A stretch of DNA of 64,000 nucleotides from a virus (IMGVR_UViG_3300045988_177154:96001-160000); one strand, 5' to 3'. Counted from the stretch's first letter, positions 9,899-36,502 are shown. The notes: generated by a model not told the origin, from the letters alone. A program made the numbers and translations.

Positions 9899-9910
9899 AA
9901 AGGTACACAA

Positions 9911-10447: not shown

Positions 10448-10459
10448 AAAGGCTCAAAA

Positions 10460-10987: not shown

Positions 10988-11003
10988 AAAGGATTGAATC
11001 AAG

Positions 11004-11510: not shown

Positions 11511-11524
11511 AAGGAGAGAACTAT

Positions 11525-11827
11525 ATGCTATTCAAATTGAAAGATACAGAAGTAAATGAAATTACACCAATTTATAAAGATGAACACTATGAAGAAGGCT
11601 GGTGTGAAACTTGTGGTGGCGAATGGGTAGATGCTGAAATTGAAATCGAAATTGTTTTTGGTGATTCAACTTCATATATTTATAGAAACAATAACAATGC
11701 TGAAATTAAATCAATTACTACAGTTATTAACTATCTATTTACACATTTAAACGAATTTCCTAACATGACGAAAGATGAGTTTATTAGCCATCTTAAGCAC
11801 CAGCTTGATGAAGATTTCAAAGATTAG
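11525..11827 (+). CDS. small acidic hypothetical protein (100 aa)
   Basis: RBS aaggagag upstream. D/E-rich, with a single CETCGG motif. Inserted between family A members 8 and 9. Confidence 0.7.
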   Translation: MLFKLKDTEVNEITPIYKDEHYEEGWCETCGGEWVDAEIEIEIVFGDSTSYIYRNNNNAEIKSITTVINYLFTHLNEFPNMTKDEFISHLKHQLDEDFKD

Positions 11828-11839
11828 AAAGAGTAAAAA

Positions 11840-12331
11840 ATGAATAACATTACTCAAAATTTCAAAGAAAATTTATTAGCTAATAACTATAAATTGATTT
11901 ATCCTAACTCTAAAAAAATAGAGATTAGGATATTTGCTAAAAAACTCTTTAGCTTAACCAAAAAAGCACAAGATATAGAACAATTGACTCCAATTCAAAA
12001 AATTCTTTATTGGGGCCAATTGTTTTTGAATGAAGAAAGATACAAATTCATAAGAGAATTAAAGAAAGATGAGCTTTTGATTAAATTTTTTAATAAAACT
12101 GGTATTGAAGAAAAATTTATCTTTTCAACTGTTAAGATTTATGATGAAAATGGCTCTCCATATTACTCATTATATCCTAAGAAAATTAAAGAAATTTATT
12201 TGAATTTTAGCTCAAAAAGTGTTATAATTGTCATAGATGAAAGATTCAAGACTAAAAAAGAAAAAGCTTGGATTAAAAAAGAAAAAAAGAAAGGAAACTT
12301 TACAAAGAATTTAGAATCTTTGATAAGTTAA
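11840..12331 (+). CDS. hypothetical protein, family A member 9
   Basis: 163 aa. Motifs NNYKLIYPN, KIKEIYL, IIVIDERFKTKKEK, C-terminal LESLIS. Confidence 0.8.
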   Translation: MNNITQNFKENLLANNYKLIYPNSKKIEIRIFAKKLFSLTKKAQDIEQLTPIQKILYWGQLFLNEERYKFIRELKKDELLIKFFNKTGIEEKFIFSTVKIYDENGSPYYSLYPKKIKEIYLNFSSKSVIIVIDERFKTKKEKAWIKKEKKKGNFTKNLESLIS

Positions 12332-17416: not shown

Positions 17417-17527
17417 AACTGATTTTGAACGTTGTTATATCGTCATATAAGCAACGCTAAGACTGTAAAAACTGGATTTCGATAAATGTATCGACTTTAC
17501 GAAAAAACAGCTTAGAGTTGCTTATTT
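17416..17527 (+). repeat. dispersed intergenic repeat, copy 3
   Basis: Contains gttgttatatcgtcatataagcaacgctaa and the palindrome tcgataaatgtatcga (17479-17494). Several aaaac(a/t)g motifs. Confidence 0.85.
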
Positions 17528-17553
17528 TTCCATATAGAAAAGGAGTTTAAAAA

Positions 17554-18645
17554 TTGGAAAAAAGCAGAAAAGAAAAAACGACAGATAAAAAATTGCTTCT
17601 AAAGCGATTTCTCATAGTACTTTTAATCATTCTATCGTGTGGAATGGCTTATTCTTATTACTTAGTAAAAAATGCTGAATCTAAATTGGAAGTAACTTAT
17701 AAACCAATAGAAAATCATGAAGAAAATAAAGTTATCGAAGCTACTAAATCAATGTCTATTCTTTTAATGGGAGTAGATACTGGAAATAGTGAAAGAACAG
17801 AAACATGGGCTGGTAATAGTGATAGCATGCTTGTTATGACTATCAATCCTAAAACAAAGAAAACAACAATTACAAGCTTAGAACGAGATATACTTACAGA
17901 AATTGAACATGATGGAGAAACAATTCAAGCTAAATTAAATGCAGCTTATCAAATGGGTGGAGTTGATTTAGCAATTCCTACTATTGAAAAAATGCTAAAT
18001 ATGAAGTTTGACCATTACTTGTTAATCAATATGAATGGCTTAGCTAAATTAGTCGATGCTGTTGGTGGAGTTGATGTTGAAAATAAATTAGGATTTCCTA
18101 TTACTATCCAAGACCAAGAAGTAGATAATCAAATTGTAATTGGAACAGGTAAACAACACTTAAATGGCGAGGAAGCATTAGTTTATTCAAGAATGAGATA
18201 CCAAGACCCAGAGGGTGATTATGGACGACAAAAACGCCAACGTGAAGTTATCCAAGCTATTATTTCTAAAATGATTTCATTTGATAGCTTAGGTAATTAT
18301 TCTGAAATTCTTGAAGCAATAAGTACTAATATTCAAACAGATATTCCGTTAAATTCAAGCAATGTGATGAATTTATTAGGCTATAAGAGTAGCTTGAACA
18401 ATATTGAACAATTCCAACTTGAAGGTGATGATGCTACTATTGCAGGCATTAGTTATCAAATCGCTAAAGCAGATAGTTTATTAGAAATTCAAAATAGAAT
18501 TAGAGAAGAACTTGGCGAAGATAAAGTAACTAAATTAAAGACAAATGCAGTTATAAATGGAAGTACAAGTCATAAAGATTCAGATGAACCTAAAAGTGTA
18601 AATAATGATGATGATTCATATTTTACTTACAAGAAAGAAGAATAA
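17554..18645 (+). CDS. LytR-CpsA-Psr (LCP) family cell-wall glycopolymer ligase homolog
   Basis: TTG start after aaaggag. N-terminal TM helix. LCP core ILLMGVDTG...SDSMLVMTINP...TSLERD...VYSRMRYQDPEGDYGRQKRQREV. Confidence 0.85.
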   Translation: MEKSRKEKTTDKKLLLKRFLIVLLIILSCGMAYSYYLVKNAESKLEVTYKPIENHEENKVIEATKSMSILLMGVDTGNSERTETWAGNSDSMLVMTINPKTKKTTITSLERDILTEIEHDGETIQAKLNAAYQMGGVDLAIPTIEKMLNMKFDHYLLINMNGLAKLVDAVGGVDVENKLGFPITIQDQEVDNQIVIGTGKQHLNGEEALVYSRMRYQDPEGDYGRQKRQREVIQAIISKMISFDSLGNYSEILEAISTNIQTDIPLNSSNVMNLLGYKSSLNNIEQFQLEGDDATIAGISYQIAKADSLLEIQNRIREELGEDKVTKLKTNAVINGSTSHKDSDEPKSVNNDDDSYFTYKKEE

Positions 18646-18647
18646 GA

Positions 18648-19055
18648 ATGATTTTACGATTTCAAGTACTTGAACATGAAAAAAGACCAAAAGTTATAGA
18701 TTTTGAATTTGATAGCATTAGCAAAGCACTTGATTTTCTTATGAAAGGGCGACCATTATCTGATTTTAATTTTGATGTAAGTCAATACTTGCTTTACACA
18801 AGAGGCAATATTGATAGTATTGTTTATCAAGTAACTCTATTAGATAAAGAGAGTGGAAAGAATATTGCTTTAGAAGATTTGACTTTCGAAGTGATTACTA
18901 GATATATTGATATGCAAGAATTTATTGAAAAGGTTTGTTTAGAAGATGAGTTGGAAGCTTATGCAGAAGAAGCCAAAGAATTATATCCGGGCTCAGCTTC
19001 ACTACTTATGCCAATTCATACTTACAATGGATTACCAACAGAAAGAGTGGTTTAG
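18648..19055 (+). CDS. hypothetical acidic protein (135 aa)
   Basis: Tightly follows the LCP gene. No motif recognised. Confidence 0.7.
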   Translation: MILRFQVLEHEKRPKVIDFEFDSISKALDFLMKGRPLSDFNFDVSQYLLYTRGNIDSIVYQVTLLDKESGKNIALEDLTFEVITRYIDMQEFIEKVCLEDELEAYAEEAKELYPGSASLLMPIHTYNGLPTERVV

Positions 19056-19068
19056 ACCACTCTTATTT
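19041..19068 (+). terminator. intrinsic terminator
   Basis: agagtggt-tta-gaccactct plus tatttt. Confidence 0.65.
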
Positions 19069-19076
19069 TGTTATGG

Positions 19077-19105
19077 TTGACTTTTCATAAATCTTGTTAT
19101 ATAAT
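19077..19105 (+). promoter_or_regulatory. sigma-A type promoter
   Basis: TTGACT 19077-19082, 17-nt spacer, TATAAT 19100-19105. Confidence 0.75.
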
Positions 19106-19139
19106 ACAATAGAAATGAAAGAATAAAGGAGTTTTTAAT

Positions 19140-20102
19140 TTGAAGAAATATTTTATTTTAGGCGCTATGTTATTTAACTTTACTCATACAACAGTTCATG
19201 CAGATTCACCAACTATTCAAGATTCTGCTAAAGGAGAACTATTGTCTGATACTTCTGTTTCAACATTAACAGAATACAAAGAAAAAATTGCTAAACTATC
19301 AGAACTTACAACAAAAGAAAAAGAAGATTTCTTTAAGGAGCTTTATGCAGCTTCATCTAAAAATGATTTTGAAAAAGTTCTAAAAAAAGCTAATTCAAAA
19401 AACAATCAACACGTTATCGAAAGACAACAAAAAGAAAAAATTGCCAAAGAAAAAGTAAAATCAGAAAATGATAAAAAACCTATGCAAGTATTTGAATTGA
19501 CTGCTATTTATGAATCTGGCAATCGTAACCCTGGAGCTATTTTAGGAACACTTGAAGATGGTGCTGGAATGAATTATGGCACATATTCATTAACTCAAAA
19601 ATATACAATGAAACCATATTTAGAATTTTTAAGTAAAAATTATCCTGAGCTACGCTCTCAATTAACAGGTGAAATTAACTCTGATGAATTTAATGCTTCA
19701 TGGAAAGCTTTGGGAGAAACAGAAACAGAAAAATTTAAAGCTTCTCAAGCACAATATATTTTTGAAACTAATATTATGCCCGTATTAGAAAAACTTAAAA
19801 AAGAGACTGGAGTAGATTTCCTAGACGGAACTCACTCAATTGGTTCTATTGGAATGATTTCAGGTATGATTCATAATGCTGGTCACGCATGGTACTCAAT
19901 TATTAAAGAAGCTGCTATTACAACTAAAAATGAATCATCACAATTTAATGATAAAGCATTTGTTGAACGTATTGGCGGTTGGGTAAGAGATAACTACTCT
20001 GGAGTATACTCACAATCAATCCGTAACCGATACTCTAAACAAACACCTCAAGAAAAAGAACGTACAGAACTATTCACTTACACTAAGAAAGAAAATCTAT
20101 AA
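19140..20102 (+). CDS. secreted protein, possible lysozyme-fold (GH46/chitosanase-like) glycoside hydrolase
   Basis: TTG start after aaaggag. Signal peptide MKKYFILGAMLFNFTHTTVHA. The IYESGN...EDGAGMNYGTYSL segment resembles the E-x-S...DG-G-x-T-x-G catalytic region of GH46-type enzymes (a weak, by-eye match). Confidence 0.4.
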   Translation: MKKYFILGAMLFNFTHTTVHADSPTIQDSAKGELLSDTSVSTLTEYKEKIAKLSELTTKEKEDFFKELYAASSKNDFEKVLKKANSKNNQHVIERQQKEKIAKEKVKSENDKKPMQVFELTAIYESGNRNPGAILGTLEDGAGMNYGTYSLTQKYTMKPYLEFLSKNYPELRSQLTGEINSDEFNASWKALGETETEKFKASQAQYIFETNIMPVLEKLKKETGVDFLDGTHSIGSIGMISGMIHNAGHAWYSIIKEAAITTKNESSQFNDKAFVERIGGWVRDNYSGVYSQSIRNRYSKQTPQEKERTELFTYTKKENL

Positions 20103-20116
20103 AAGGAGCTTTAATT

Positions 20117-21103
20117 ATGCTAAAACAAAAAGATAATAAATTTTACATTGGAAAAGAAGAAGTAACACTATTTGCTATTTATTTACCAGATTTATTTACA
20201 GATGTTCCAAGTGATTACTATTTCTATTTTAATCCAAAGAACAATAAATTTGAAATGGCTAGCGATAATAGTTTTGCTTATTGGGCTTCTCAAGTCTTTT
20301 ATGATAGTAGTTTTATTGTTCTTGCTCAATATAAAAAATCAGAACGAATTGATTTAATTAACGATAAAACATTCTTATTTAAGTATTTTTCTGACACAAT
20401 GGATAATGACGAAGACCGCCAAATCTTTTTGGAACATGGTAAAGAAGAAATTGATAAGATTCATGCTTCATATGAAAATATGAAAAGACTTCTTGCTGGA
20501 GTAGGTGCTGGATTATTTGACTCAGAAAAATATATTGTCCAATGGCTGCAGAAAGAATACGGGGAAAATTTAATCTTTAGTATTACTCCAAATGACTATG
20601 GCTATCTATTAAAAATTCATGAATATAATAAAGTTGCACAATATTTACATAAATCTAATTTCAATAAAGACTGGGGAAAGAAAAGAGTCAAAACCGAGTT
20701 AAACAATTTAAAATATGAATTAGCTTTTCAAAGAGCAATTACTCGTTCACTTGAAAGTGTAAAGGAATACGAAAAAGAAATAATCAAAGAAAAAGCTAAA
20801 AATATTTTATCAGATTGCAATATTGGTAAAATCGATAGCATTACAAGTAGAATTGAGAACAACGAAATTATTATGATGGCAAGACTTATCTTATTTAGTG
20901 GTGATTATCTTACTATTCACTTTGCTAAGGATTTTACTATAACACGAATTGCAAAATCAATTAAAGACAAAGGCCAGGAAGAAATTATTGATGGTATTAC
21001 TTATATAAAACCAGGCTCTTTTACAGAAACATTTGCTAATATTAGTACAAAAATCAACTTGGAAGAAACTGATAAATGGTTACCAATTTTGGATAACTTA
21101 TAA
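20117..21103 (+). CDS. hypothetical protein (328 aa)
   Basis: RBS aaaggag upstream. No motif recognised. Confidence 0.75.
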   Translation: MLKQKDNKFYIGKEEVTLFAIYLPDLFTDVPSDYYFYFNPKNNKFEMASDNSFAYWASQVFYDSSFIVLAQYKKSERIDLINDKTFLFKYFSDTMDNDEDRQIFLEHGKEEIDKIHASYENMKRLLAGVGAGLFDSEKYIVQWLQKEYGENLIFSITPNDYGYLLKIHEYNKVAQYLHKSNFNKDWGKKRVKTELNNLKYELAFQRAITRSLESVKEYEKEIIKEKAKNILSDCNIGKIDSITSRIENNEIIMMARLILFSGDYLTIHFAKDFTITRIAKSIKDKGQEEIIDGITYIKPGSFTETFANISTKINLEETDKWLPILDNL

Positions 21104-21122
21104 AAACTTATCTCATTCCTTG

Positions 21123-21151
21123 TTGACAAATCAGTTACTTTATTATATAAT
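21123..21151 (+). promoter_or_regulatory. sigma-A type promoter
   Basis: TTGACA 21123-21128, 17-nt spacer, TATAAT 21146-21151. Confidence 0.75.
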
Positions 21152-21181
21152 ATAACTACAAATCACAAAGGAATGAAAACT

Positions 21182-22351
21182 ATGAACTTATTAGAACAAT
21201 ACAAACAGTTACAGAAAACAAACTTATCAAAAGATGGCGATATGCAGCTAGGTATCGCTTACAAAAAAGAAAATGGATTGACTACAGTAAAATACCTTCA
21301 TGGTGGAGTAGATTTTAATAATCCTTTATATAGACAAGCTCGTGGATTAACACTAGACTTGAATGGAAAAGTAATTTTACGAGGATTTGAAAAATTCTTT
21401 AACTGGAAACAATTAACAGAATATGAAAATTATTCAAAGGAATTTAAAAAAGTATACTCAGAAGTAGAATATATCCCTAATCATAAATATAATTTCTATG
21501 AAAAGTTGGATGGTTCACTAATTCTCTTAGCAGAGTATAAGAATCGTTTTGTAGCTGCAACTACTTCATCATCTTATAATCCATATACTCAAACTGCTCT
21601 TAAATGGTTCCACCAAAAAGAAAACCATAGAGAATTGCTTAACTATCTAAGAGCTAAAAATATTACATTAGCATTTGAATACATTTCAATCAAAAACCCA
21701 ATCGTAATTCATTATACTCATACTGATTACGTTTTAATTGGAGCTCATGAAAACAAAACAGGTAAACGCTACTCACAAGAACAATTAAACAAAATTGCTA
21801 AACGTTTTGGATTTAACCAACCTAAAGTTTTCCAATATACTTTTGAAGAAATTCAAGAAGTTATGAGCAATGCTAAAGATATTGAAGGCTTCGTGCTAGA
21901 AAATACTTATGGAAAACTTATTAAATTTAAAACTGACGAATGGTTCCGCTTGAAAGATTACTACGGTATCTTCTTCGGACCACTAACAAATTCAAAAATT
22001 TCTACAATTATTGAAAGCTATCTTGCTGATGAAATTGATGACCTAATCGCTGTTGAACAACAACACGAACATTACAAACATTTAGGATTGCTTGACACTA
22101 CTCTAACTCATGCTAAATATTTTGAAGATGAAGTTCTAAAAGCTTATAAAGTTACAAAACATTTATCAGACAAAGAACTTGGCTTGAATTGGAAAGATTA
22201 TATGGAATCATATGCTTTGCCATGTGTATTTAATATAAGAAAAGGTGTTGATTGGAGAATACAAAGAAAAGGTGAAGGCCCAGTTACATTAGCATTATTA
22301 GTTCAAACAAAAGTAAAACAAGAAAGAGAGGAAGAATTATTAAATGGATAA
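21182..22351 (+). CDS. RNA ligase-like nucleotidyltransferase (covalent lysine-adenylate superfamily)
   Basis: Start placed at ATG 21182, 9 nt after aaagga. Motif I YEKLDGS, EGFVLE, and motif V-like KLIKFKTDEW. Confidence 0.6.
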   Translation: MNLLEQYKQLQKTNLSKDGDMQLGIAYKKENGLTTVKYLHGGVDFNNPLYRQARGLTLDLNGKVILRGFEKFFNWKQLTEYENYSKEFKKVYSEVEYIPNHKYNFYEKLDGSLILLAEYKNRFVAATTSSSYNPYTQTALKWFHQKENHRELLNYLRAKNITLAFEYISIKNPIVIHYTHTDYVLIGAHENKTGKRYSQEQLNKIAKRFGFNQPKVFQYTFEEIQEVMSNAKDIEGFVLENTYGKLIKFKTDEWFRLKDYYGIFFGPLTNSKISTIIESYLADEIDDLIAVEQQHEHYKHLGLLDTTLTHAKYFEDEVLKAYKVTKHLSDKELGLNWKDYMESYALPCVFNIRKGVDWRIQRKGEGPVTLALLVQTKVKQEREEELLNG

Positions 22352-22841
22352 GATTATTAACAATATGAGATACACTGACACTCATGTTTATTTCTTTACG
22401 GACCAAGCTCCGTTTTCAAACTTTTATAAAACAAGATTTTATTATAAGGGATATAACTTGCAATTTTCTGAGCAAGGATTTATGATTGAGAAAGCATTGT
22501 TATTTGATAATAGCAAAGCGAGTTTAATCGCTTATGAAAAACACCCTTATCAAGTTAAAATGCTTGGCCGTAAAGTGAGAAATTACAATGAAGCAAAATG
22601 GAATGAAGTACGTTATGATAAAATGGTAGAAGTGCTTCGTGCTAAATTTTCTCAAAATGAAGATTTGAAACAAATCTTACTTGAAACAGGTGACCGTATT
22701 CTAGTCGAAGGCTCTCCTTATGATAAGATTTGGGGCGTAAAAATCGACTGGAAAGATGATAAAATTCTTGACGAAAAGAATTATAAAGGAATGAACTTGT
22801 TAGGTAAGGCACTTATGCAAGTCAGAAGCGAGCTTAAATAG
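22344..22841 (+). CDS. NADAR (YbiA/DUF1768) family ADP-ribose-processing protein
   Basis: Motifs FFTDQAPFSNFY, FSEQGFMIEKA, MLGRKVRNYNEAKW, LVEGSPYDKIWGV. The start overlaps the ligase stop by 8 nt. Confidence 0.85.
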   Translation: MDKIINNMRYTDTHVYFFTDQAPFSNFYKTRFYYKGYNLQFSEQGFMIEKALLFDNSKASLIAYEKHPYQVKMLGRKVRNYNEAKWNEVRYDKMVEVLRAKFSQNEDLKQILLETGDRILVEGSPYDKIWGVKIDWKDDKILDEKNYKGMNLLGKALMQVRSELK

Positions 22842-22945
22842 ATTTTGAGGGTCGATATATCGTCACTAGCGAAACGCTAAGATAGTTAAAACTGAATTTC
22901 GATAAATGTATCGACTTAACGAAAAAACAGCTCAGAAACAGTTTT
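22841..22945 (+). repeat. dispersed intergenic repeat, copy 4
   Basis: Contains atatatcgtcactagcgaaacgctaa and tcgataaatgtatcga. Followed by a terminator. Confidence 0.8.
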
Positions 22946-22946
22946 A

Positions 22947-22980
22947 AAGAGAGTTACTAAATAGAGCAACTCTCTTTTTC
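22947..22980 (+). terminator. intrinsic terminator
   Basis: agagagtt-actaaatagagc-aactctct plus a T-run. Confidence 0.75.
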
Positions 22981-22982
22981 AT

Positions 22983-23011
22983 TTGACTTTTTAGGTAAGA
23001 TATTGTAAAAT
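22983..23011 (+). promoter_or_regulatory. sigma-A type promoter
   Basis: TTGACT 22983-22988, 17-nt spacer, TG-adjacent TAAAAT 23006-23011. Confidence 0.6.
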
Positions 23012-23048
23012 AAAGATTACAATAAAAATAAAATAGTAAGGGATAAAT

Positions 23049-24263
23049 ATGAAAGATAATAAAACTGAAATTGAACAACTATCTCGGAGAGAAGTTTTTA
23101 AAATGACTCAAGAAACAAAACGAAAAAAACGTAGTAAAAGAACAAGACTTCTAATTACACTTATTACTGTTGGAATTATTGGTGGAATTGCTATTGAGGG
23201 TGTAAATCTTTTATCAATCTATAATAGTAGTAAGGCTTGGCAAAAACAATCTAAAACGCCTATTGCTTCATTAGAACCTTATATGCTCTATCTAAGCCAA
23301 GAGGATATGGATAATCTTTCAGAATATACTTCAAGATTAAGTGTTATCTATGATAGTAATAAAGGTGTATTTGCTGAGGGAGTTACTCAAAAGGATTTAG
23401 ATGAGTTACAAAAAGAATTTGAAAAATTAGCGCCCTCACTCAAAGAAAAAGAAGAAGCTAAATATAAATTAGTAAGTAATATGTGGAGTATGAAATCTGA
23501 CTATGATGCAATGTGGAATAAAGAACATACTGCATTATTAGACTCTACTACACCTAAAACAGTAAGTGATTATGTGGATAAACACTGGAAAATCATGGAT
23601 TCATATTTAGAAGATGATTCTATTCAAAAAGAATGGCTGATTAACACTTATAATGAATTAAATAAATTAAAAGATGATACTGCTACAATCTCTGCTTTGT
23701 TCAATATGTTTAATTCAACTTTTGATGTATCTGACAAAAAGATTATTGTTAAGAAAGATGTAAGTTCATCATCTATTGCAGAATGGAGTAAAGTTAAAGC
23801 AAATCTTAACTTCAGTTGGCCTATCGTTTCTAATTACATGACTGAAATTATTAACAACTCAACTAAGATTTTAGAAAAACATGATAAAGCTATCAATCTT
23901 TATACAGAATATAGTGGAGCTGCAGAAAGTAAAAATGCTTTTGACACTTGGAGTAAAACATATTCACAATATAATAACAGTATGATTAACTTGCCGAACT
24001 TTGTTGGAAAAGACATTGAAACTGTAAAATCTTGGGCTAAAGAAAATGGAATTACACTCATTATCAATAAAGTAGAAGATTCTGCTAAGAAAGATACAGT
24101 AATTTCACAAAATCCAACTAATTCTGATTATGCTAAAATTCTAAAAGGTAGTGCATTTACTGTTAATATTGCTAAAGAAAAAACAACTACTACTGAAACA
24201 AAAGATAAAGACAAAGAAAATAAAAAAGAAACAACAGAAGCAACAACTAAGGAGAATAACTAA
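23049..24263 (+). CDS. membrane-anchored protein with C-terminal PASTA domain
   Basis: TM helix LLITLITVGIIGGIAI after a basic stretch. C-terminal LPNFVGKDIETVKSWAKENGITLIINKVEDSAKKDTVISQNP...FTVNIAK is PASTA-like. Confidence 0.7.
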   Translation: MKDNKTEIEQLSRREVFKMTQETKRKKRSKRTRLLITLITVGIIGGIAIEGVNLLSIYNSSKAWQKQSKTPIASLEPYMLYLSQEDMDNLSEYTSRLSVIYDSNKGVFAEGVTQKDLDELQKEFEKLAPSLKEKEEAKYKLVSNMWSMKSDYDAMWNKEHTALLDSTTPKTVSDYVDKHWKIMDSYLEDDSIQKEWLINTYNELNKLKDDTATISALFNMFNSTFDVSDKKIIVKKDVSSSSIAEWSKVKANLNFSWPIVSNYMTEIINNSTKILEKHDKAINLYTEYSGAAESKNAFDTWSKTYSQYNNSMINLPNFVGKDIETVKSWAKENGITLIINKVEDSAKKDTVISQNPTNSDYAKILKGSAFTVNIAKEKTTTTETKDKDKENKKETTEATTKENN

Positions 24264-26497
24264 TGAAGATTTTAAAAAAGATTATGAAATTTATTTTAAA
24301 GCTCTTTAAATGGAGTTTAATATTAGGATTTATCCTTGCTCTTGTTGGTTTCTTAGCTGGAACAATTTATAGTGCAGGTGTAATCAAACAAACTCCTAAA
24401 ATTACTGAAGAAATGATTACAAAAGCAACAGGTGGAACTACAAATATGTACGATTCAACTGGCCAAGTAATCTATTCTGATACTGAGCATAGACGAGATT
24501 ATATTCGTTATGATGAAATTCCAAATAAATATATTGAGCTATTACTTGCAACTGAAAATAAGAATTATTGGAATGAAAAAGGTTGGTCATTTGAAGCTAT
24601 CCTAGCTGCAATTAAAAGCAAAGGTGCTCGTGGTGGTTCTACTATTGAACAACAACTTATTAAAAATCTTGTTTTCTCAAGTGACATTAAAGACAGAACG
24701 ATTGACCGTAAGATTAAAGAAATCTGGCTCGCTTCACAAATGGATTTAAACTTTGACAAGAAACAAATCTTGGAATGGTATATTAACTTAATCAATATGG
24801 GTGAGGGCTCTTATGGAGCAAATACTATTGCTATTACTTATTACGGTCAAAGTTTGAAAGATTTAACTGGTGATGATGCAGTAACATTATCTAAATTAGC
24901 TACAATCGCTGGATTAGGACAAGCTCCATCAGCTTACAATCTATATGATAACCCCGAATTAGTAGAAGAACGAAGAAATATTGTTTTACTAAGTGCTCTT
25001 AATAATAATAAGATTACTGAAGAACAATATGAAGAAGCTAAAAAAGTTCCAATTCAAGAGGGCTTGAAAGAGCGTTATTGGAGAAATGGAACAGTGTTAG
25101 CACAAACAAAAGAACATAATGCTTATGTAACTTCTGCTCTTAAACAAGTTCAAGAATTGGGCTATGATTTAGAAAAAACACCAATGCAAATCTATACTGC
25201 TTTAGACCCAAATGTTAACTCACAAGTAAAATCTACCTTTGATAATTTTTCTGGTTATAAAGATGATGAAGAACAAATGGCAGCTACTGTTATTGACCCT
25301 AATACAGGTTATGTATTAGCACAATATGGGGGAAGAAATACAGAAGCATTTGGTTTGAATAGAGCAACACAACAAACACGTAGTTCAGGTTCGTCTATTA
25401 AACCATTTGAAGATTATGGTCCCGCTATTGAATATAATGGACTAGGAACAAATTATATTTTAGATTCAAGTAATTATCTTTACCCAGGTACAAATGTAGT
25501 AGCACATAACTTTGGTGGCGCAACTTATGGAAATGTAACTATGGCATTCGCTCTTAAAATGTCATTAAACACTCCAGCTATTCGTATCTTGAATAATGTT
25601 GTTGGTTCAAACAATGCTAAGAAATTCCTAGCTGGAATGAACTTAGATACAGAAGAAACCTATGGAGATTCAACAGCTTTAGGATTGAATGTTTCAACTG
25701 AACAAATGGCAGCTGCTTCTGCTACTCTTGCTAATAAAGGAATGTATAAGAAACCACAATATATTACTAAATTGGTATTTAATGATGGTTCAGAAAAAGA
25801 AATTAAATTTAATCCAACAAGAGCTATGAAAGAAAGTACTGCATATATCTTATTGAAGATGATGGCAGAAGTCCCTAAACCTACTGGTACAGCTACTGAT
25901 GCTATTATCAATCACTATAAGAGTTATTCTGTTAAAACAGGTACTGTAGGATACGGTCCCGAAGTTGGTTGGGCAACAAGTAATGATGCTTCTGATACTT
26001 GGGTAGTTGGAACAACTAAGAATGTTTCTATTGCTATTTGGAATGGCTATGATTCCCCTAATGAATACGGACATAGTGTTGATGTTTATGCTCACTCACA
26101 ACAACGAGTATTTAAACAATTGATGTTAGCAATGAATGAAGGCAAAGATGTTAGCGATTGGGAAAAACCAGATACTGTAACAAGTTCTGACCCTAACAAC
26201 ATGAAACCAACTGATGTTGATGTTAACTCATCTTATATTGATAAATTCCCAGAGCCATATTTCACATTATCAGACACTAGTGTTAATAATAGTATCAATG
26301 CTTATTACAAAAAAGATAAATTATTAAAAGTGGAAGATGCTGGAGTAGAAAAATACAAAGTTCCAAGTGATTATAAAGAAGTTATTGATTGGCAATCAAA
26401 AGCAAATGCAGATATGCTAAGATTATTCAATGCTTATCCAAACAATCCTTTATACCCAGCACTTATCAACAATAATGCTTATTATCAAGAACCATAA
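24263..26497 (+). CDS. class A penicillin-binding protein (bifunctional glycosyltransferase/transpeptidase, PBP1A-like)
   Basis: N-terminal TM helix. GT51 motifs ATENKNYW, RGGSTIEQQLIKN, RKIKEIW. Transpeptidase motifs SSGSSIKPF (SxxK) and VKTGTVG (KTG). The ATG overlaps the upstream stop by 1 nt. Confidence 0.9.
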   Translation: MKILKKIMKFILKLFKWSLILGFILALVGFLAGTIYSAGVIKQTPKITEEMITKATGGTTNMYDSTGQVIYSDTEHRRDYIRYDEIPNKYIELLLATENKNYWNEKGWSFEAILAAIKSKGARGGSTIEQQLIKNLVFSSDIKDRTIDRKIKEIWLASQMDLNFDKKQILEWYINLINMGEGSYGANTIAITYYGQSLKDLTGDDAVTLSKLATIAGLGQAPSAYNLYDNPELVEERRNIVLLSALNNNKITEEQYEEAKKVPIQEGLKERYWRNGTVLAQTKEHNAYVTSALKQVQELGYDLEKTPMQIYTALDPNVNSQVKSTFDNFSGYKDDEEQMAATVIDPNTGYVLAQYGGRNTEAFGLNRATQQTRSSGSSIKPFEDYGPAIEYNGLGTNYILDSSNYLYPGTNVVAHNFGGATYGNVTMAFALKMSLNTPAIRILNNVVGSNNAKKFLAGMNLDTEETYGDSTALGLNVSTEQMAAASATLANKGMYKKPQYITKLVFNDGSEKEIKFNPTRAMKESTAYILLKMMAEVPKPTGTATDAIINHYKSYSVKTGTVGYGPEVGWATSNDASDTWVVGTTKNVSIAIWNGYDSPNEYGHSVDVYAHSQQRVFKQLMLAMNEGKDVSDWEKPDTVTSSDPNNMKPTDVDVNSSYIDKFPEPYFTLSDTSVNNSINAYYKKDKLLKVEDAGVEKYKVPSDYKEVIDWQSKANADMLRLFNAYPNNPLYPALINNNAYYQEP

Positions 26498-26502
26498 AAA
26501 AT

Positions 26503-26529
26503 AAAGGTAGCAATCAAATTGCTACCTTT
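26503..26529. terminator. bidirectional intrinsic terminator between convergent genes
   Basis: aaaggtagcaat-caa-attgctaccttt, flanked by an A-run and a T-run. Confidence 0.8.
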
Positions 26530-27522
26530 TTATAAGTTATCTCCTAATATAATTTCTTTTTTCTTTACTTCTATATTCTCACCAATATTATCATTCATTA
26601 AGAAGAAACAACTGGAACTAGGAAGCATGCCCTCTGTTGTGAATATATAATATTGATTATCATATTCATAAAATGATTTAATTTCACTTATTCTATTTTT
26701 ATAAACTACAAATAAGTTATAACATTCTAACTCTTGATTATATTGTAATCTTTCAAATGGCAAATTATCAATATTAACAAAATAATAATAAGATTGATTA
26801 GGTATTTTAGTTATAATTTTAAGCTCTAATCTTTTTAGTAACCTTTCTAATTCAATCTTTTTCAAATGTAATTTAACAATTTTCTTTTTCTCTTTATATA
26901 TACTTCTTGATTCACTGTCAAATTTTCTTAATATTTCTTTATAATTATTAAGTGCTTCATTTTCCTTTTTGGAAAATTCTATTAAATCATTAGTATATTC
27001 ATGAGTAAATCTTTCTATATGTTTTGATTTTAGATATGCCGGCACTTGATTGTATTTTCCATTCAATATGCTATCAATAGTCAAGCTGCCTGCTGTAATT
27101 TTCAAATTTGAAATTTTTCTAATATGACTAGCTAATTTTGCTTTGTGAGCTATGATAAGCACTCTCTTTTCATTCAATACATTTTCATATAATTTAGCAG
27201 CTTCTTGTCTAGCAAGCCATTCCTTTGAATGAAAATAACCCTTGACATAATTTTCATGTTTTTTTATAATAGTATCAATGGTAATTATTTTTTGCTCTAA
27301 ATCATTTATTTTATTTTTGAGTGATGTATATTCTTTTAAATCTTCATCATAACAATTAGTATAACCTAATTTCTCAAAAATAGTATCTTTGAAATATAGC
27401 AAATAAAATTTAGCTTCGGAATAAGAAGAAAAAAGAATATTATTAAAGACTAAATCATTATCAACTGAGTCTTTATAGATTTTAATGAGATTAGATTGTT
27501 TTTCTATGTAGTATTTATTCAT
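26530..27522 (-). CDS. hypothetical coiled-coil protein (330 aa)
   Basis: One of only three minus-strand genes. RBS aggagaag upstream on the minus strand. K/E-rich heptad-like segments. Confidence 0.7.
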   Translation of the reverse strand: MNKYYIEKQSNLIKIYKDSVDNDLVFNNILFSSYSEAKFYLLYFKDTIFEKLGYTNCYDEDLKEYTSLKNKINDLEQKIITIDTIIKKHENYVKGYFHSKEWLARQEAAKLYENVLNEKRVLIIAHKAKLASHIRKISNLKITAGSLTIDSILNGKYNQVPAYLKSKHIERFTHEYTNDLIEFSKKENEALNNYKEILRKFDSESRSIYKEKKKIVKLHLKKIELERLLKRLELKIITKIPNQSYYYFVNIDNLPFERLQYNQELECYNLFVVYKNRISEIKSFYEYDNQYYIFTTEGMLPSSSCFFLMNDNIGENIEVKKKEIILGDNL

Positions 27523-27622
27523 TCTATATTCTTCTCCTATAAAAAATGTTCATTAAGTTTGATATAATGTGTGATAACTGTAACAAAAAATCATAAAATC
27601 CAATAAAAAAGGAGGTGAAATT

Positions 27623-28840
27623 ATGTACTTAACTGAAAAAGAGATTATCTATTCAACTGATGAAAGATTTAACTTGATTAAAGATTTGTGCCATTTAAGC
27701 AAAAATCTTTATAATGCAAGTCTTTATGATGTTAGACAATATTACTTTGAAACTAAATCATACAGAACTTGGCAATCACAAGTGCCAATTTTTACTAAAA
27801 CTAAAAATACTGATTATTATGCACTTCAATCTCATGTTGCTAGTGAAGTGATAAAGCAAGTTGGTAGACAATTTATTAGTTTTTTCAATAATAAATCTAA
27901 CAAAAAGAAACGAATCCCTAAATACAAAGATAAAAATGGTTATAACGTTGTTACTTTCAATAATCGTGCAATTTCTAGGAAGATTGAGTTTGATGAGGAT
28001 AAACAACTTTATACTCATACTCTATGTAAGAAAAGTTATAATCTTAAAATTCAATCAACTAAATCAAATATTAAAATGGTAAAATTTGTTTATGATGAAG
28101 TTAATGACTTAATCAAGTGTTACAAGATTTATGAAGTTGAACAACCTAAGTTGAAAAATGATAATTCACGGTATTTCTCAATTGACCCAGGGTTAAATAA
28201 TATTGTTGCTATTTACAATAACATTGGAATCAGACCGTTATTATACAATGGCAGACCAATCAAAAGTATTAACCAATATTACAATAAAACAACTGCTAAA
28301 TTGAGGTCAGAATTGCCCACTAATATTAAATCATCTAAAAGATTAAAACAACTATCTTTAAAGAGAAATAACAAAATTGATTATGAGATGCACAAAATTT
28401 CAACTCATATTATCAATGAAGCCGTAAAAAACAACATTTCAAAAATCTTTATTGGCAATAACATTGGTTGGAAAAATGAAATTAACATTGGCAGAAGAAA
28501 TAACCAAAATTTTGTTAATATTCCTCATACAAAACTATTCAATCAATTGCTATATAAAGGGTCATTAAATGACATTGAAGTTATCTTTACAGAAGAGAGT
28601 TACACTTCAAGAGCAAGTTTCTTTGATAAAGATGAATTACCTATTTATGATGAAACTAGCAAGTATAAATTCTCTGGTAGAAGAATAAAACGTGGCTTAT
28701 ATAAAGATAGTAAAGGCAATATATGGAATGCTGATTTAAATGGAGCAGCCAATATTATGAGAAAATGTTCAGACAAAGCCTATAAAGGTATAAGAAAAAC
28801 CAAAGAAATGATGCGACAGCCAATTCTTATAACATTATAA
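27623..28840 (+). CDS. tnpB: TnpB-like RNA-guided endonuclease (IS605 OrfB family, cysteine-less zinc-finger variant)
   Basis: 405 aa; RBS aaggaggtg upstream. RuvC-I SIDPGLNN, RuvC-II FTEESYTS, RuvC-III NADLNGAANI. The segment between II and III (RASFFDKDEL...RIKRGLY) lacks the CxxC pairs. Confidence 0.85.
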   Translation: MYLTEKEIIYSTDERFNLIKDLCHLSKNLYNASLYDVRQYYFETKSYRTWQSQVPIFTKTKNTDYYALQSHVASEVIKQVGRQFISFFNNKSNKKKRIPKYKDKNGYNVVTFNNRAISRKIEFDEDKQLYTHTLCKKSYNLKIQSTKSNIKMVKFVYDEVNDLIKCYKIYEVEQPKLKNDNSRYFSIDPGLNNIVAIYNNIGIRPLLYNGRPIKSINQYYNKTTAKLRSELPTNIKSSKRLKQLSLKRNNKIDYEMHKISTHIINEAVKNNISKIFIGNNIGWKNEINIGRRNNQNFVNIPHTKLFNQLLYKGSLNDIEVIFTEESYTSRASFFDKDELPIYDETSKYKFSGRRIKRGLYKDSKGNIWNADLNGAANIMRKCSDKAYKGIRKTKEMMRQPILITL

Positions 28841-28960
28841 GTAGCACTCAATTTAATATAATGAGAGTGTAGAGGCATTTGTAGGTATGCCATTATGAGA
28901 AGTTAAATCTTAATTTAACGAGTCTATAAAAATCAAATCATATTTGATTAACCTATAAAG
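28841..28960 (+). ncRNA. putative omega/reRNA scaffold - IS right-end region
   Basis: Four consecutive hairpins directly after the tnpB stop: cactc/gagtg, ggcat/atgcc, gttaaat/atttaac and aatcaaat/atttgatt. Confidence 0.35.
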
Positions 28961-28986
28961 AATATCTAAAAAAGCGAGGAAAATAA

Positions 28987-29748
28987 ATGAAAAATAAGAA
29001 AAAAGCTGATTGGCTGGACTGGCTATTAAGAATTGCAATTGTACTAGGAATTATTGGAACAATTTATTTTAGCTATAGTCCAGCAAAAAATTATTTAACT
29101 GCTAAGCAAGAAGAAGCAAAGATTGAAGAAGTTGCTAAGAAAGTAGTAGAAAACACACACGATTACCCAGATGTAAAAGAAATTAAGAAATCAACAAATG
29201 AAGATGTAGTTGGTTGGATTAGAGTACCTGGTACTAATATTGATGAACCAATTTTACAAACTACTGACAATGAATTTTACTTAAATCACTCTTTAACTAA
29301 GGAAGAGTTAGATGTTGGAAGTATTTTCCTAGATGCTAAAGCAAATTCTAATTACGATAACAACTTGAATTTCGTATTCGGCCACAATACTTACATTGAT
29401 AATAAATTTACTCAATTAAGAAAATTCTCTGACCCAGAATTTAATAAAGCTAATAAAACTTTCTATATCTTTACTGATAAGAATGAAAAGATTACTTACA
29501 GAATTATCGGACAAGGTTTAATTCCACCAGTATTTCCTCTTTATACCGAAGATAATGTGAAATTAACCGTAGATAATTTAACCGAATACCAAAAACACCT
29601 GAAAGAATTTACAGATATTACTCAAGAAGATATTGAGGATATTCATGTTGACTCTAAACTTGCAATCTTAACTACTTGTTTATCTTACAACAATTCTGAC
29701 GGGCGACAAATTGTAGTAGGATTAGAAGTAAGTCGTGAAAAATATTAA
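28987..29748 (+). CDS. srtB: class B sortase
   Basis: N-terminal TM helix. Motifs VVGWIRVPGTNIDEPILQTTDNEFYLNH, FGHN, and the catalytic LAILTTC. Confidence 0.85.
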   Translation: MKNKKKADWLDWLLRIAIVLGIIGTIYFSYSPAKNYLTAKQEEAKIEEVAKKVVENTHDYPDVKEIKKSTNEDVVGWIRVPGTNIDEPILQTTDNEFYLNHSLTKEELDVGSIFLDAKANSNYDNNLNFVFGHNTYIDNKFTQLRKFSDPEFNKANKTFYIFTDKNEKITYRIIGQGLIPPVFPLYTEDNVKLTVDNLTEYQKHLKEFTDITQEDIEDIHVDSKLAILTTCLSYNNSDGRQIVVGLEVSREKY

Positions 29749-31834: not shown

Positions 31835-32581
31835 ATGAATGAAATATTAACAATACCAAATTTAATTATTATTGTAACAACTATCATTATCTATCTAGTT
31901 GTAGATAATATATTCCAAAAAATTATAATTAAACACAATAATATAACAAATACTTTTTTAGCTAACACTTCTAAGATTATAGTAATTCTCATAGGTATTT
32001 TTGTTTTTTGCTCACAATATCCTGTATTTGAGAAAAGTTTAAATTCTCTATTCACAAATAGTGCTTTGATTGTAGCAGTTTTAGGATTTATACTACAAAA
32101 CACAATCAAGAATATTATAGCAGGCTTAATGCTTTTATCTGCTGAAACTTTTAAAATTGGGGATAGAATAAGAATGCCCGCTCAAGATATTACTGGAACA
32201 ATAGAAGAAATGACTTTAAGACATACAACTTTAAAACTTGTTACTAATGAAAGAGCAATTATTCCTAACTCAATTATGAATGATTCTATAATAGTAAACA
32301 ATGATATAAAAGAGTCAATAACAAGCTACCCTATATCTCTCCAAGTTAAAATTGATAAAGATATAAGCCTTGCTAAACAAATATTAGAAGAAGCAATAGA
32401 AGCTAATCAAAATCTATTAAATAAAGAAAATTCAAAAGTGACTATATCTCATGTAACTGAAACAATAGTAGAATTGAAAGCTCTTATATGGACCAAGGAT
32501 ATTGAAACAAGCTTTGAAGAATTATCTAATTTAAAATTAGAAGTTATCAAAAAATTTCAAGAAAATAACTTATATGACTAA
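31835..32581 (+). CDS. mscS: small-conductance mechanosensitive channel (MscS family)
   Basis: Three N-terminal TM helices. Pore helix plus beta-domain IKNIIAGLMLLSAETFKIGDRIRM...GTIEEMTLRHTTLK...NERAIIPNS. Confidence 0.8.
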   Translation: MNEILTIPNLIIIVTTIIIYLVVDNIFQKIIIKHNNITNTFLANTSKIIVILIGIFVFCSQYPVFEKSLNSLFTNSALIVAVLGFILQNTIKNIIAGLMLLSAETFKIGDRIRMPAQDITGTIEEMTLRHTTLKLVTNERAIIPNSIMNDSIIVNNDIKESITSYPISLQVKIDKDISLAKQILEEAIEANQNLLNKENSKVTISHVTETIVELKALIWTKDIETSFEELSNLKLEVIKKFQENNLYD

Positions 32582-32753: not shown

Positions 32754-32915
32754 AGCATTCAAATACTATTATAAAACAAAAACGTTTTTATAATTTGTCT
32801 TATAATAGTTTAGCTCTTAGAGTATCAAGGAAGTAGAATAATATAACTAGATATGATATAATAAACGAAAAGGGTTACATTTTTGGTAACTCAAAAGAAA
32901 ACGAGGTGCTTTTTA

Positions 32916-35216
32916 ATGAAAAAAGTTATTGATGAAGCAATTTATAGTAAAGCTTGGGAAGGCTTTAAAGGAAATGCTTGGAAAGAATCGACTAGTGTTG
33001 CTAAATTCGTCCAAGATAATTATACTCCATATGATGGTGATAAAAGTTTCCTAGAAGAAGCAACAGAACGAACTTTACATATTAAACATATTATGGACTC
33101 AACTAGAGCCGAATATGAAAAAACAAGATTTCCGATGGATACTCGTCCAACTTCTATTGCTGATATTCCAGCAGGCTATATTGACAAAGAAAATGAACTT
33201 ATCTATGGACTTCAAAATGATGAATTATTCAAATTGAATTTTATGCCAAAAGGTGGTTTAAGAACAGCTGAAACCGCATTGAAAGAACACGGCTTTGAAC
33301 CCGACCCAGTTGTTCACGATTTCTACTCTAAGAATGTTGTTACAGTTAATGACGGTATCTTTAAAGCATATACACAAGACATTAGACGAGCTCGTCATTC
33401 TCACTTAATTAGTGGTTTGCCAGATGCTTATTCTCGTGGTCGTATTATTGGTGTTTATGCTAGATTGGCTCTATATGGAGCAGAATACCTAAAAGAAGAA
33501 AAGAATAGAGATTGGCAAGCAATTACTTCAACTGATGATGAATCAATCAGATTAAAAGAAGAAATCTTTAACCAATATAAAGCTCTTGATGAAATTATTA
33601 GATTAGGAGATTTGTATGGTGTTGATGTTCGTAGACCAGCATTTGATACTAAAGAAGCTATTCAATGGACTAATATTGCTTTCATGGCTGCTTGTCGTGT
33701 AATCAATGGGGCTGCTACTTCTATCGGACGCTTACCAATTGTTCTTGATGTATTTGCTGAACGTGACTTAGAACGTGGAACTTATACTGAAAAAGAAATT
33801 CAAGAGTTTGTTGATGATTTTGTAATCAAATTAAGAACAGTTAAATTTGCAAGACAAAAAGCATTTGATGAAATCTATTCAGGTGACCCAACATTTATCA
33901 CAATCTCAATGGGTGGTATGGGTAACGATGGCCGTCATAGAGTTACTAAAATGGACTATCGTTTCTTACACACTTTAGATAATATTGGAAATGCACCAGA
34001 ACCAAACTTAACTGTTCTTTGGACTGATAGATTACCTTATAACTTTAGACACTATTGTATGGAAATGAGTCACAAACACTCTTCAATCCAATACGAAGGT
34101 GTTACAACAATGGCTAAAGATGGATACGGTGAAATGAGCTGTATCTCATGTTGTGTATCTCCACTTGACCCAGAAAATGAAGAATGCCATGCAAATATTC
34201 AATACTTCGGAGCTCGTATTAACGTATTGAAAGCATTACTTACTGGATTAAATGGTGGCTATGATGATGTTCACCGTGATTACAAAGTATTTGATGTAAC
34301 AGAACCAATCACCTCTGAATATTTAGATTTTGATGAAGTATTAGACAACTTTGACAAAGCTTTAGAATGGACTACTAAGAATTATGTTGATGCTTTAAAT
34401 ATTATCCATTATATGACAGATAAATATAATTATGAAGCTGCTCAAATGGCATTGCTACCATCTAAGATTGGAATTAACATGGGATTTGGTATTTGTGGAT
34501 TTGCTAATTTAGTAGATTCATTATGTGCTATTAAATATGCTAAAGTTAAAACAATTCGTGATGAAAATGGCTATATTTATGATTATGAAGTTGAGGGTGA
34601 GTTCCCACGTTATGGTGAAGATGACCCACGCTCAAATGAAATGGCAGAATGGTTGTTAGAAACTTATTACCACAAACTTGCTAAACATAAATTGTATAAG
34701 AATGCTCGTGCTACAGTATCTATCCTTACAATTACTTCAAACGTAGCATATTCTAAACAAACTGGTAATTCACCTGTTCACAAAGGTATTTATCTAAATG
34801 AAGATGGTTCAGTAAATTACTCTAAAGTAGAGTTCTTCTCACCAGGTGCTAACCCATCTAACAAAGCAAAAGGTGGATGGCTACAAAATCTAAACTCATT
34901 ATCAAAACTTGATTTCAAATATGCTAATGACGGTATTTCATTAACAACGCAAGTTGCTCCTAAAGCATTAGGTAAAACTTATGAAGAACAAGTTGATAAC
35001 TTAGTAAGTATTCTTGATGGTTATTTTGAAAAAGGTGGTCAACACGTTAACTTAAACGTAATGCAACTTGAAGATGTTTACGAAAAGATTATGAGTGGTG
35101 AAGATGTCATAGTGAGAATCAGCGGATACTGCGTAAATACAAAATATTTAACTAAAGAACAAAAAACAGAATTAACTCAACGTGTATTCCATGAAATTTT
35201 AAATGGAGTAGAATAA
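32916..35216 (+). CDS. pflB: pyruvate formate-lyase (formate C-acetyltransferase, glycyl-radical enzyme)
   Basis: Start placed at ATG 32916, after gaggtg. Active-site CC in [13 protein letters not shown]-terminal glycyl-radical motif [10 protein letters not shown]. Full-length similarity to PflB is recognisable ([27 protein letters not shown]). Confidence 0.9.
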
Positions 35217-36353: not shown

Positions 36354-36371
36354 AACATTTACTCCTTTTTC
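36341..36371 (+). terminator. intrinsic terminator
   Basis: aggagtaaa-ctaaaaca-tttactcct plus tttt. Spans the stop codon. Confidence 0.65.
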
Positions 36372-36379
36372 TTAGTGTT

Positions 36380-36495
36380 AAAATAAGCAACTCTAAGCTG
36401 TTTTATTGAATGGTCGATACATTTATAGAAAATCAGTTTTGACTGTATTACTGTTTCACTAGTGACGATATAACGACATTCAAAATCAGTTTCAG
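36380..36495 (-). repeat. dispersed intergenic repeat, copy 6
   Basis: taagctgttttattgaatggtcgatacatttat...gacgatataacgac...aaaatcagttt. Its reverse complement matches copy 4. Confidence 0.75.
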
Positions 36496-36502
36496 TATAT
36501 AG

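Follow-up and report, generated by a model that had tools for sequence, protein, structure and literature searches.

Genes for enzymes that build the Gram-positive cell wall lie together in a stretch of DNA that is catalogued as viral, and this raises the question of what kind of element carries them and what they do for it. The stretch comprises positions 96,001 to 160,000 of IMGVR_UViG_3300045988_177154, a segment of 64,000 nucleotides that is called the window throughout, and positions are counted from its first letter unless a sampled locus is named. The envelope genes of the window encode an LCP (LytR-CpsA-Psr) glycopolymer-peptidoglycan ligase, a secreted lysozyme-type protein, a PASTA-domain membrane protein coupled to a class A penicillin-binding protein (PBP), a class-B-like sortase, a type I signal peptidase and a predicted lipoprotein (Table 1). 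A preliminary description of the window had assigned them to a phage-like element that may remodel its host's envelope during infection. Here, we describe a computational analysis of these genes and of the molecule that carries them. We consider it likely that the window is part of a circular, conjugative-plasmid-like giant element (~325 kb, ~30% G+C) of oral Lactobacillales, with Streptococcus as the likeliest host and of the kind recently named 'Inocles', and that, as part of the same claim, the envelope genes belong to its long-retained core.

The window has a G+C content of 29%, and nearly every gene lies on the + strand. Copies of the element beyond the window were read through an IMG/VR probe with a 20-mer taken from a repeat in the window, one protein-based IMG/VR scan, and loci with precomputed Pfam annotation. 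After overlap bookkeeping, the sampled DNA, covered by Pfam and PHROG tables, amounts to roughly 235 kb or about two-thirds of the element. Two independently assembled contigs, of 324,805 and 324,989 bp and with different breakpoints, carry the PBP gene. The window also crosses the junction of contig k119_149838, whose two ends share about 119 nt, from which we conclude that the molecule, ~324.9 kb long, is circular or circularly permuted. The sampled loci, partly overlapping and 254 kb in total, have a G+C content of 29.8%, and the majority of open reading frames (ORFs) are orphans without a Pfam or PHROG match. Proteins of the window and its flank have exact copies in NCBI nr under 'MAG TPA ... 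Siphoviridae sp. ctHip2', a contig of 324,997 bp, and other members of their clusters bear the names 'Bacteriophage sp.' or 'Caudoviricetes sp.' Exact window proteins were found on hundreds of contigs of 300-352 kb, IMG/VR contigs of 261-315 kb hold a PBP 96-97% identical to that of the window, and one source run of element copies, ERR589724, is a public human metagenome. Megablast of the region against the INPHARED phages gave no match, and the 185,579 species-representative genomes of GTDB contain no close relative of either the PBP or an antigen I/II adhesin that the element encodes.

The genes outside the window point to a carrier that moves by conjugation. In the same IMG/VR contigs that hold the 96-97% identical PBP, a conjugation-type module was read in the order primase, VirD4-type coupling protein (T4CP; 755 aa; TraG-D_C, 8e-11; TrwB, 1e-9), orphan ORF, weak TraC/VirB4-like protein, weak NikA-like protein, TrbL/VirB6 protein (934 aa; 28.5 bits, above the Pfam cut-off), SSB, membrane-anchored CHAP hydrolase and sigma factor. 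Near this module lie genes for SbcC, a second VirB6-like protein of ~1,380 aa, RecA and DnaB, as well as a 1,132-aa lysin-domain protein that bears the JGI name 'putative transfer protein'. Additionally, TcpE and an AAA_10 (VirB4/TcpF-type) ATPase are encoded in sampled locus L155, and the element possesses a ParA-like ATPase. Its replisome is of bacterial type, with DnaB, DnaG, a Pol III alpha subunit containing an intein, a clamp loader, GyrA and GyrB, ligase and RecA, accompanied by a helicase and thymidylate synthase.

No capsid, portal, terminase, tail or baseplate family occurs in the Pfam and PHROG tables for the roughly 235 kb sampled. A portal and a large terminase subunit (TerL) in locus L057 (IMG/VR UViG_3300007736_000189, 8,037 bp) were considered as virion genes of the element and rejected, the portal family being absent from all giant contigs; the contigs that have it do not exceed about 45 kb, with 35-45 kb typical of the longer ones, and the pair belongs to oral siphophages of that size. 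In L057 the siphophage TerL and portal are joined to a 1,453-aa ORF that, over its C-terminal 860 residues, shares 98% identity with the antigen I/II adhesin of the element, and a copy of the window's repeat is present. We treat L057 as a chimeric assembly, a real recombinant, or a sequence unrelated to the element.

Conjugative plasmids of the Firmicutes provide one standard of comparison; plasmids of the pCF10 type carry LPXTG aggregation adhesins, and pCW3 has a Tcp-type conjugation system. The element resembles such plasmids and megaplasmids in possessing a T4CP, TcpE/AAA_10 and VirB6-like proteins and a CHAP/lysin hydrolase, and in having an LPXTG adhesin adjoining its transfer genes. It differs from the plasmids in PLSDB, however, in that identity to plasmid proteins does not exceed 28% for its coupling protein and is about 35% for its PBP. 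To our knowledge, no plasmid combines these features with a 17-tRNA array, a GOLLD RNA, RNA-repair enzymes and a full replisome. The element also shares properties with jumbo phages (>200 kb), including its size, low G+C content, near-unidirectional gene arrays, tRNA cluster, GOLLD RNA, RNA ligase, Thg1 and CCA enzymes, and ADP-ribose-processing enzymes; it departs from them in having conjugation and partition genes and no detected virion or packaging genes in the sampled part.

The closest published counterparts are the Inocles, circular plasmid-like elements of 245-395 kb from the human mouth (Kiguchi et al., Nat Commun 2025; PMC12340149). Inocles are low in G+C (group averages of 32% and 24%), rich in insertion sequences (IS), tRNA-bearing and composed mostly of orphan genes; one has been traced to Streptococcus salivarius, and they are 16-fold enriched in the cell pellet compared with a 0.45-um filtrate (PMC12340149). 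All of them encode VirB4 and VirD4, and Pol III, gyrase, exonucleases, 'RpoS' and NrdH have also been reported (PMC12340149). A bifunctional transglycosylase and a sortase are conserved in all Inocle taxa and an S26 signal peptidase in three of four, LPXTG-like proteins are present, and transcripts of the cell-wall genes have been detected in saliva (PMC12340149). The element matches this description in being circular, within the size range, low in G+C, IS-rich and tRNA-bearing, with mostly orphan genes; in its VirB4/VirD4-type genes, Pol III, gyrase, exonucleases, sigma factor and glutaredoxin/NrdH-like gene; and in its PBP (a bifunctional transglycosylase), sortase, S26 signal peptidase and LPXTG-like surface proteins. 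There are also differences, in that the G+C content of 29.8% coincides with neither published group average, the sortase is class B-like whereas Kiguchi et al. call theirs sortase A, and those authors mention neither an LCP ligase nor a PASTA partner.

The defining single-copy marker of Inocles is InoC, a protein of ~454 aa with an N-terminal replication-relaxation domain, PF13814 (PMC12340149). Two candidates for InoC were rejected: one, located at a strand switch and 450 aa long, turned out to be a TnpB-like protein with multiple copies, and the other, a 425-aa ORF adjoining VirD4, has no Pfam domain and identity tiers that do not fit. Window ORFs of 429/451 and 447 aa gave no matches, and the ORFs around VirD4 together with ten further mid-sized ORFs lack PF13814. 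Since InoC was not found and the comparison was made through the published description, we regard membership of the element in the Inocles as probable rather than proven.

All of the envelope ORFs named in the preliminary description were recovered at the positions given there. The single PASTA domain of the PBP's partner scores 31.3 bits against a cut-off of 23.2, and the TAA stop of its gene shares an A with the ATG of the PBP gene (TAATG), with an AAGGAG Shine-Dalgarno sequence just upstream. The PBP contains transglycosylase (Transgly, 5e-42) and transpeptidase (4e-20) domains, and its top NCBIfam model is strep_PBP1A. Residues E98, E153, S377xxK380, S434xN436 and K558TG are invariant in 121 homologs. 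The genes had been called motif-intact, and the catalytic residues are indeed kept in the PBP, the sortase and the signal peptidase, but GT51 motifs 1 and 2 of the PBP deviate. In motif 1 the sequence is ENxxYxxExG, with D replaced by N, F by Y and H by E, and in motif 2 it is GGSTIEQQ, with T replaced by E; the T-to-E change is kept by most of the PBP family, the motif 1 histidine is mostly D, N or E across it, and the D-to-N change is limited to the lineage of the window PBP. Despite these deviations, the protein is, as judged from its GT51 catalytic glutamates and its SxxK, SxN and KTG motifs, a predicted class A PBP.

The relatives of this PBP are found mainly on other large contigs. In phage-collection and PLSDB searches, it is about 30-36% identical to PBPs of cultured organisms or plasmids; its first named homolog, from Dellaglioa (46%), appears at rank 103 behind a large metagenome-only clade of PBP1A proteins, which sits on contigs of 200-430 kb and has its own GT51 motif signature. 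Furthermore, the PASTA-PBP cassette recurs with the same TAATG overlap on a different giant element (contigs of 365-426 kb, 26% G+C locally), whose PBP is 56% and whose PASTA partner is 33% identical to the window's. Class A PBPs also occur in PLSDB on plasmids of 137-520 kb, including Lactobacillus and Bacillus mycoides megaplasmids. The tblastn matches to the PBP and LCP proteins in the phage collection were set aside: those listed are mostly unannotated multi-contig records, named 'Listeria/Enterococcus/Staphylococcus phage' and 'Bacteriophage sp.', that probably represent host contamination and are thus uninformative about true phages. Exceptions among the listed matches are Microcystis, Klebsiella and Acinetobacter phage records with annotated PBP or transglycosylase genes.

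Selection on these genes was estimated by comparing the window with three IMG/VR contigs that bear the same region (synonymous divergence, dS, 0.25-0.8). Ratios of nonsynonymous to synonymous substitution rates (dN/dS) are 0.05-0.06 for the PBP, 0.09 for the PASTA protein, 0.07-0.09 for the sortase and 0.08 for the secreted hydrolase-like protein. Thus, all four genes are under strong purifying selection.

The remaining envelope genes have predicted functions in anchoring, export and attachment, and one N-terminal membrane anchor each is found in the LCP protein, PASTA protein, PBP, sortase and signal peptidase. The LCP domain exceeds the cut-offs of PF03816 (E 7e-47, 159.7 bits) and TIGR00350 (148.1 bits), and the top NCBIfam model of the protein, the streptococcal LytR equivalog, is matched at 418.8 bits, just under its cut-off of 450; the anchor lies at about residues 13-40, and identity to the BrpA-type LCP in PDB 8QTY is 56% over 278 residues. 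The secreted protein matches T6SS_VgrG3-like_C above the cut-off (E 2e-14) and, weakly, the VgrG3-C structure 4NOO, and the sole domain match of the lipoprotein is to DUF5105, below threshold. The sortase has as its top model class B TIGR03064 at 118.5 bits, under the cut-off of 153.75, and all 15 of its listed PDB matches are sortase B-type entries, most of them named sortase B. The signal peptidase scores 114.6 bits with TIGR02227 (cut-off 47), and its GHSMDPT and KRIIG motifs, containing the Ser/Lys dyad, align to SpsB. Elsewhere on the element, a second, shorter S26 signal peptidase (164 aa) is encoded among the replisome genes, SecA has a homolog, and there are genes for CHAP and SLT hydrolases.

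The preliminary description had seen no LPXTG- or NPQTN-type substrate in the window, and this holds: no window ORF has a cell-wall sorting signal at its C-terminus, and no substrate adjoins the sortase. It had proposed a search of the rest of the genome, and this search located an LPNTG-anchored antigen I/II adhesin, reaching about 1,800 aa and encoded with GyrB upstream of the primase, as well as proteins with IPTTG and LPVTN sorting signals. Display of the element's own secreted proteins, one of the purposes suggested for the envelope genes, is in keeping with these finds.

The same early-type promoters had been thought to drive all of the envelope genes. Near-consensus sigma-A promoters (TTGACA-17-TATAAT) follow terminator hairpins in the window, and promoters of this host type precede the secreted-hydrolase gene and the PASTA-PBP pair, but the generalization fails for the LCP, sortase and signal peptidase genes. 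Neither the upstream spacer of the LCP gene nor that of the sortase gene contains a sigma-A promoter, the sortase spacer coming after a TnpB insertion, and the signal peptidase gene is internal to an operon, since its start overlaps the end of the gene upstream. The TnpB gene is missing from this site in all three related IMG/VR contigs and therefore represents a strain-specific IS insertion. The element carries transposases and several further TnpB-like families (419-552 aa) at scattered positions, and for one TnpB-like protein of 450 aa, metagenomes contain thousands of variants with 90-93% identity. From their consensus sigma-A promoters, the envelope genes are probably expressed by host RNA polymerase.

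An intergenic repeat of ~100 nt is present in six copies in the window. A 20-mer from it occurs 47 times in IMG/VR, nearly always in contigs of this element family. The repeat was considered as a structured RNA, or riboregulator shared by the LCP and PBP genes, and this was rejected: RNAalifold on 46 copies yielded an invariant 6-bp hairpin only, without covariation, and Rfam gave no match at the gathering score. It may instead be a DNA-level, protein-binding site or a repeat resembling a miniature inverted-repeat transposable element.

Taken together, the envelope genes would equip the element with a self-contained set of surface tools. Surface proteins encoded by the element would be exported and matured through SecA and the signal peptidases; those with non-canonical signals may be anchored by its own class-B-like sortase and the LPNTG adhesin by the host's sortase A. 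The PASTA partner is proposed to guide, position or regulate PBP1A, which would add capacity for peptidoglycan polymerization and cross-linking, and the LCP protein would join glycopolymers to the wall. The cell surface would be altered as a result, in favour of adhesion and colonization and, plausibly, of mating-pair formation for the type IV secretion system. Enterococcal conjugative plasmids encode aggregation substances, which the LPXTG adhesin beside the transfer genes of the element recalls. Of the earlier proposal of host envelope remodelling, one part is retained, in that a mobile element with intact wall-building, anchoring and secretion enzymes probably remodels the surface of its host, but its placing during infection is not.

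Several observations weigh against a conjugative element of the Inocle kind. GenBank and IMG/VR both catalogue the element as a virus; the 17-tRNA array with its embedded GOLLD RNA, the T4-type RNA ligase, Thg1, the CCA-adding enzyme and the alpha-glucosyltransferase-like genes are phage-like; and rIIB is encoded on a distant PBP-bearing relative. Within the conjugation module, the TraC/VirB4-like (461 aa) and NikA-like matches fall below Pfam cut-offs. PF13814, the InoC domain, is absent from all Pfam scans and precomputed tables over about two-thirds of the element. Finally, with sampling at that extent and most ORFs orphan, divergent virion genes could be hidden. A genuine jumbo phage or phage-plasmid, with virion genes that are divergent or located in the other third and envelope enzymes that act during infection or lysogeny by masking receptors, maintaining the wall or displaying phage proteins, would account for the cataloguing as Caudoviricetes (Siphoviridae sp. 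ctHip2) and as IMG/VR UViGs, for the tRNA array and GOLLD RNA, for the RNA-repair and ADP-ribose enzymes (RNA ligase, Thg1, CCA-adding enzyme, NADAR, ADP-ribosylglycohydrolase and PARG), for the alpha-glucosyltransferase-like genes with thymidylate-synthase-like and dUTPase genes, and for the preponderance of orphans. We nevertheless judge it unlikely, as about 235 kb contained not one capsid, portal, terminase, tail or baseplate family, the only portal and TerL found derive from siphophages of 35-45 kb and from no giant contig, the element has a conjugative type IV secretion system, ParA and a bacterial-type replisome, and its published sister elements are enriched in the cell pellet rather than the filtrate. 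On the same grounds, the phage carrier of the preliminary description is not upheld, nor are the superinfection exclusion and long infection cycle invoked with it. That description had named a plasmid segment as the finding that would overturn it, and a plasmid-like carrier is largely what the transfer, partition and replication genes, the lack of packaging genes and the match to Inocles indicate.

Two further explanations were weighed. The envelope genes might have been acquired from the host only recently and be mere passengers, repeating chromosomal functions without a role specific to the element, as the 56% identity of the LCP protein to streptococcal BrpA-type LCPs, the class A PBPs on Lactobacillus and Bacillus mycoides megaplasmids, and the redundancy of the Inocle transglycosylase and sortase with Streptococcus chromosomes noted by Kiguchi et al. 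(PMC12340149) would allow. This we find improbable in view of the distance of the PBP from those of cultured organisms and plasmids (about 30-36% identity, with Dellaglioa at 46% only at rank 103), its clade's own GT51 signature, the retention of the PASTA-PBP cassette across lineages, the strong purifying selection, and the lack of a close PBP relative among the 185,579 GTDB genomes. The replisome genes of bacterial type, SecA, GreA, a sigma factor and the many tRNAs could be taken to indicate that the contig is no mobile element but comes, as a fragment or chromid, from an uncultivated Gram-positive bacterium with a reduced genome; this is nonetheless highly improbable for a molecule that closes as a ~325-kb circle, that has no rRNA in the window and no ribosomal-protein family in any sampled table, and that consists mostly of orphan genes together with conjugation genes and IS elements. 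The conjugative, Inocle-like element is thus preferred, and its likely assignment to streptococci draws on the LCP identity and LytR model, the strep_PBP1A model and the antigen I/II adhesin.

A more far-reaching version of the conjugative element is advanced tentatively, as a possibility that we think doubtful. On this view, the element would be a replicon of hybrid kind, in which a giant conjugative plasmid has both a jumbo-phage-like toolkit (tRNA array, GOLLD RNA, RNA repair and possible DNA glucosylation) and a complete private envelope pathway (SecA, two signal peptidases, sortase B, LCP and the PASTA-PBP1A cassette) that builds an element-specific coat or mating junction, its PBP1A belonging to a deep element-specific clade. 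This clade is found on many elements of 200-430 kb that differ in G+C content and so, presumably, in host. If this were true, the envelope pathway would do more than duplicate host functions.

In outline, the envelope gene set is essentially explained by the report of Kiguchi et al. (2025). To it, the present analysis adds the LCP ligase, the conserved and translationally coupled PASTA-PBP1A cassette, the probable assignment of the sortase to class B, SecA, a second signal peptidase, and the large uncultured PBP1A clade on giant contigs, all of which are handles for asking how such elements alter streptococcal surfaces. It also bears on a label, for a very common human oral element that is counted as a phage has the appearance of a giant conjugative plasmid of the Inocle type; a gastric-cancer virome study (2025) already counts 'Siphoviridae sp. 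ctHip2' (NCBI taxid 2827830) as a phage (PMC12345221). Since the carrier is plasmid-like, its wall-building genes are not an example of phages with wall-synthesis enzymes.

Table 1. Positions of envelope genes, promoters, repeats and other features in the window or, where an L number is given, in a sampled locus of the element or a relative.
Feature	Position	Strand	Remarks
tRNA genes	79-5465; 31144		17 in the array and one more (18 total)
Predicted lipoprotein	691-1590	+	Signal peptide and lipobox LGAC; within the tRNA array
GOLLD RNA (Rfam RF02032)	4689-5142	+	Within the tRNA array
tRNA-???	4756-4830		ARAGORN call, enclosed by the GOLLD RNA
Tandem paralogous orphan genes	5715-12331	+	About ten genes, 100-184 aa
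~100-nt repeat copy	17431-17530	+	Fills the greA-LCP spacer; invariant palindrome TCGATAAATGTATCGA
~100-nt repeat, six window copies	17431-17530, ~22882-22980, 46556-46650, 63449-63545 (+); 9270-9374, 36350-36500 (-)	+ and -	
LCP glycopolymer-peptidoglycan ligase	17554-18645	+	PF03816; N-terminal transmembrane (TM) anchor; closest to streptococcal LytR/BrpA
Sigma-A promoter, secreted-hydrolase gene	19077-19105	+	Near-consensus
Secreted lysozyme-type protein	19140-20102	+	Signal peptide, GA module, VgrG3-C-like domain
RNA-repair/ADP-ribose toolkit	21173-22841, 36527-39421, 50578-51399; L064:6608-7393		CCA-adding enzyme on - strand
Sigma-A-type promoter, PASTA-PBP pair	22983-23011	+	TTGACT-17-TAAAAT; preceded by a repeat copy
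PASTA partner protein	23049-24263	+	TM anchor; one C-terminal PASTA domain
Class A PBP, PBP1A family	24263-26497	+	GT51 and transpeptidase; N-terminal TM anchor
TnpB (IS605 OrfB) insertion	27623-28840	+	Domain match; between PBP and sortase
Class-B-like sortase	28987-29748	+	N-terminal TM anchor; catalytic His, Cys (TTC) and Arg present
MscS-type mechanosensitive channel	31835-32581	+	Further envelope gene; domain match
PFL-like glycyl-radical enzyme	32883-35216	+	Full-length
Type I signal peptidase (S26)	42264-42863	+	TIGR02227; start overlaps end of YqeY-like gene
Alpha-glucosyltransferase-like genes	52177-53439 (+); L155:16385-17551 (-); L157:16701-17588 (-)	+ and -	T4-type; PHROG 2888 / Pfam TAGT
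Bax1-I/YccA-like protein	59132-59830	+	Membrane homeostasis; domain match
Cysteine-motif orphan family	59971-60909; L152:3913-5049, L152:8207-9397 (-); L153:16194-17333		
Band_7/HflK-like protein	61029-61925	+	Membrane homeostasis; domain match
Second S26 signal peptidase	L154:9517-10011		
Thymidylate-synthase-family gene	L155:11503-13089		528 aa
SecA homolog	L155:19760-20867		

Other features of the element were noted in passing. The GOLLD RNA match has a score of 156.3 bits (E 7e-42), the gathering score being 150. Pairwise identity within the tandem array of orphan genes is 25-41%, and locus L157 contains similar runs of ORFs of ~160 aa. The toolkit for RNA repair and ADP-ribose processing consists of a T4-type RNA ligase, NADAR, a CCA-adding enzyme, Thg1, a metallophosphatase and an ADP-ribosylglycohydrolase, with PARG encoded just upstream of the window. 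Alongside the three alpha-glucosyltransferase-like genes and the thymidylate-synthase-family gene are genes for a dUTPase and DHFR and a faint match to dNMP kinase; the glucosyltransferase- and thymidylate-synthase-type genes suggest possible DNA hypermodification, a phage-like trait. A family of orphan proteins of 312-396 aa shares the N-terminal cysteine motif M..(Y/F/M)HI...G....C.A....CP. Finally, the PFL-like enzyme matches PF02901 (9e-155) and Gly_radical, no activase having been noticed nearby, and a distant relative of the element (locus L059) carries NrdD in its place.

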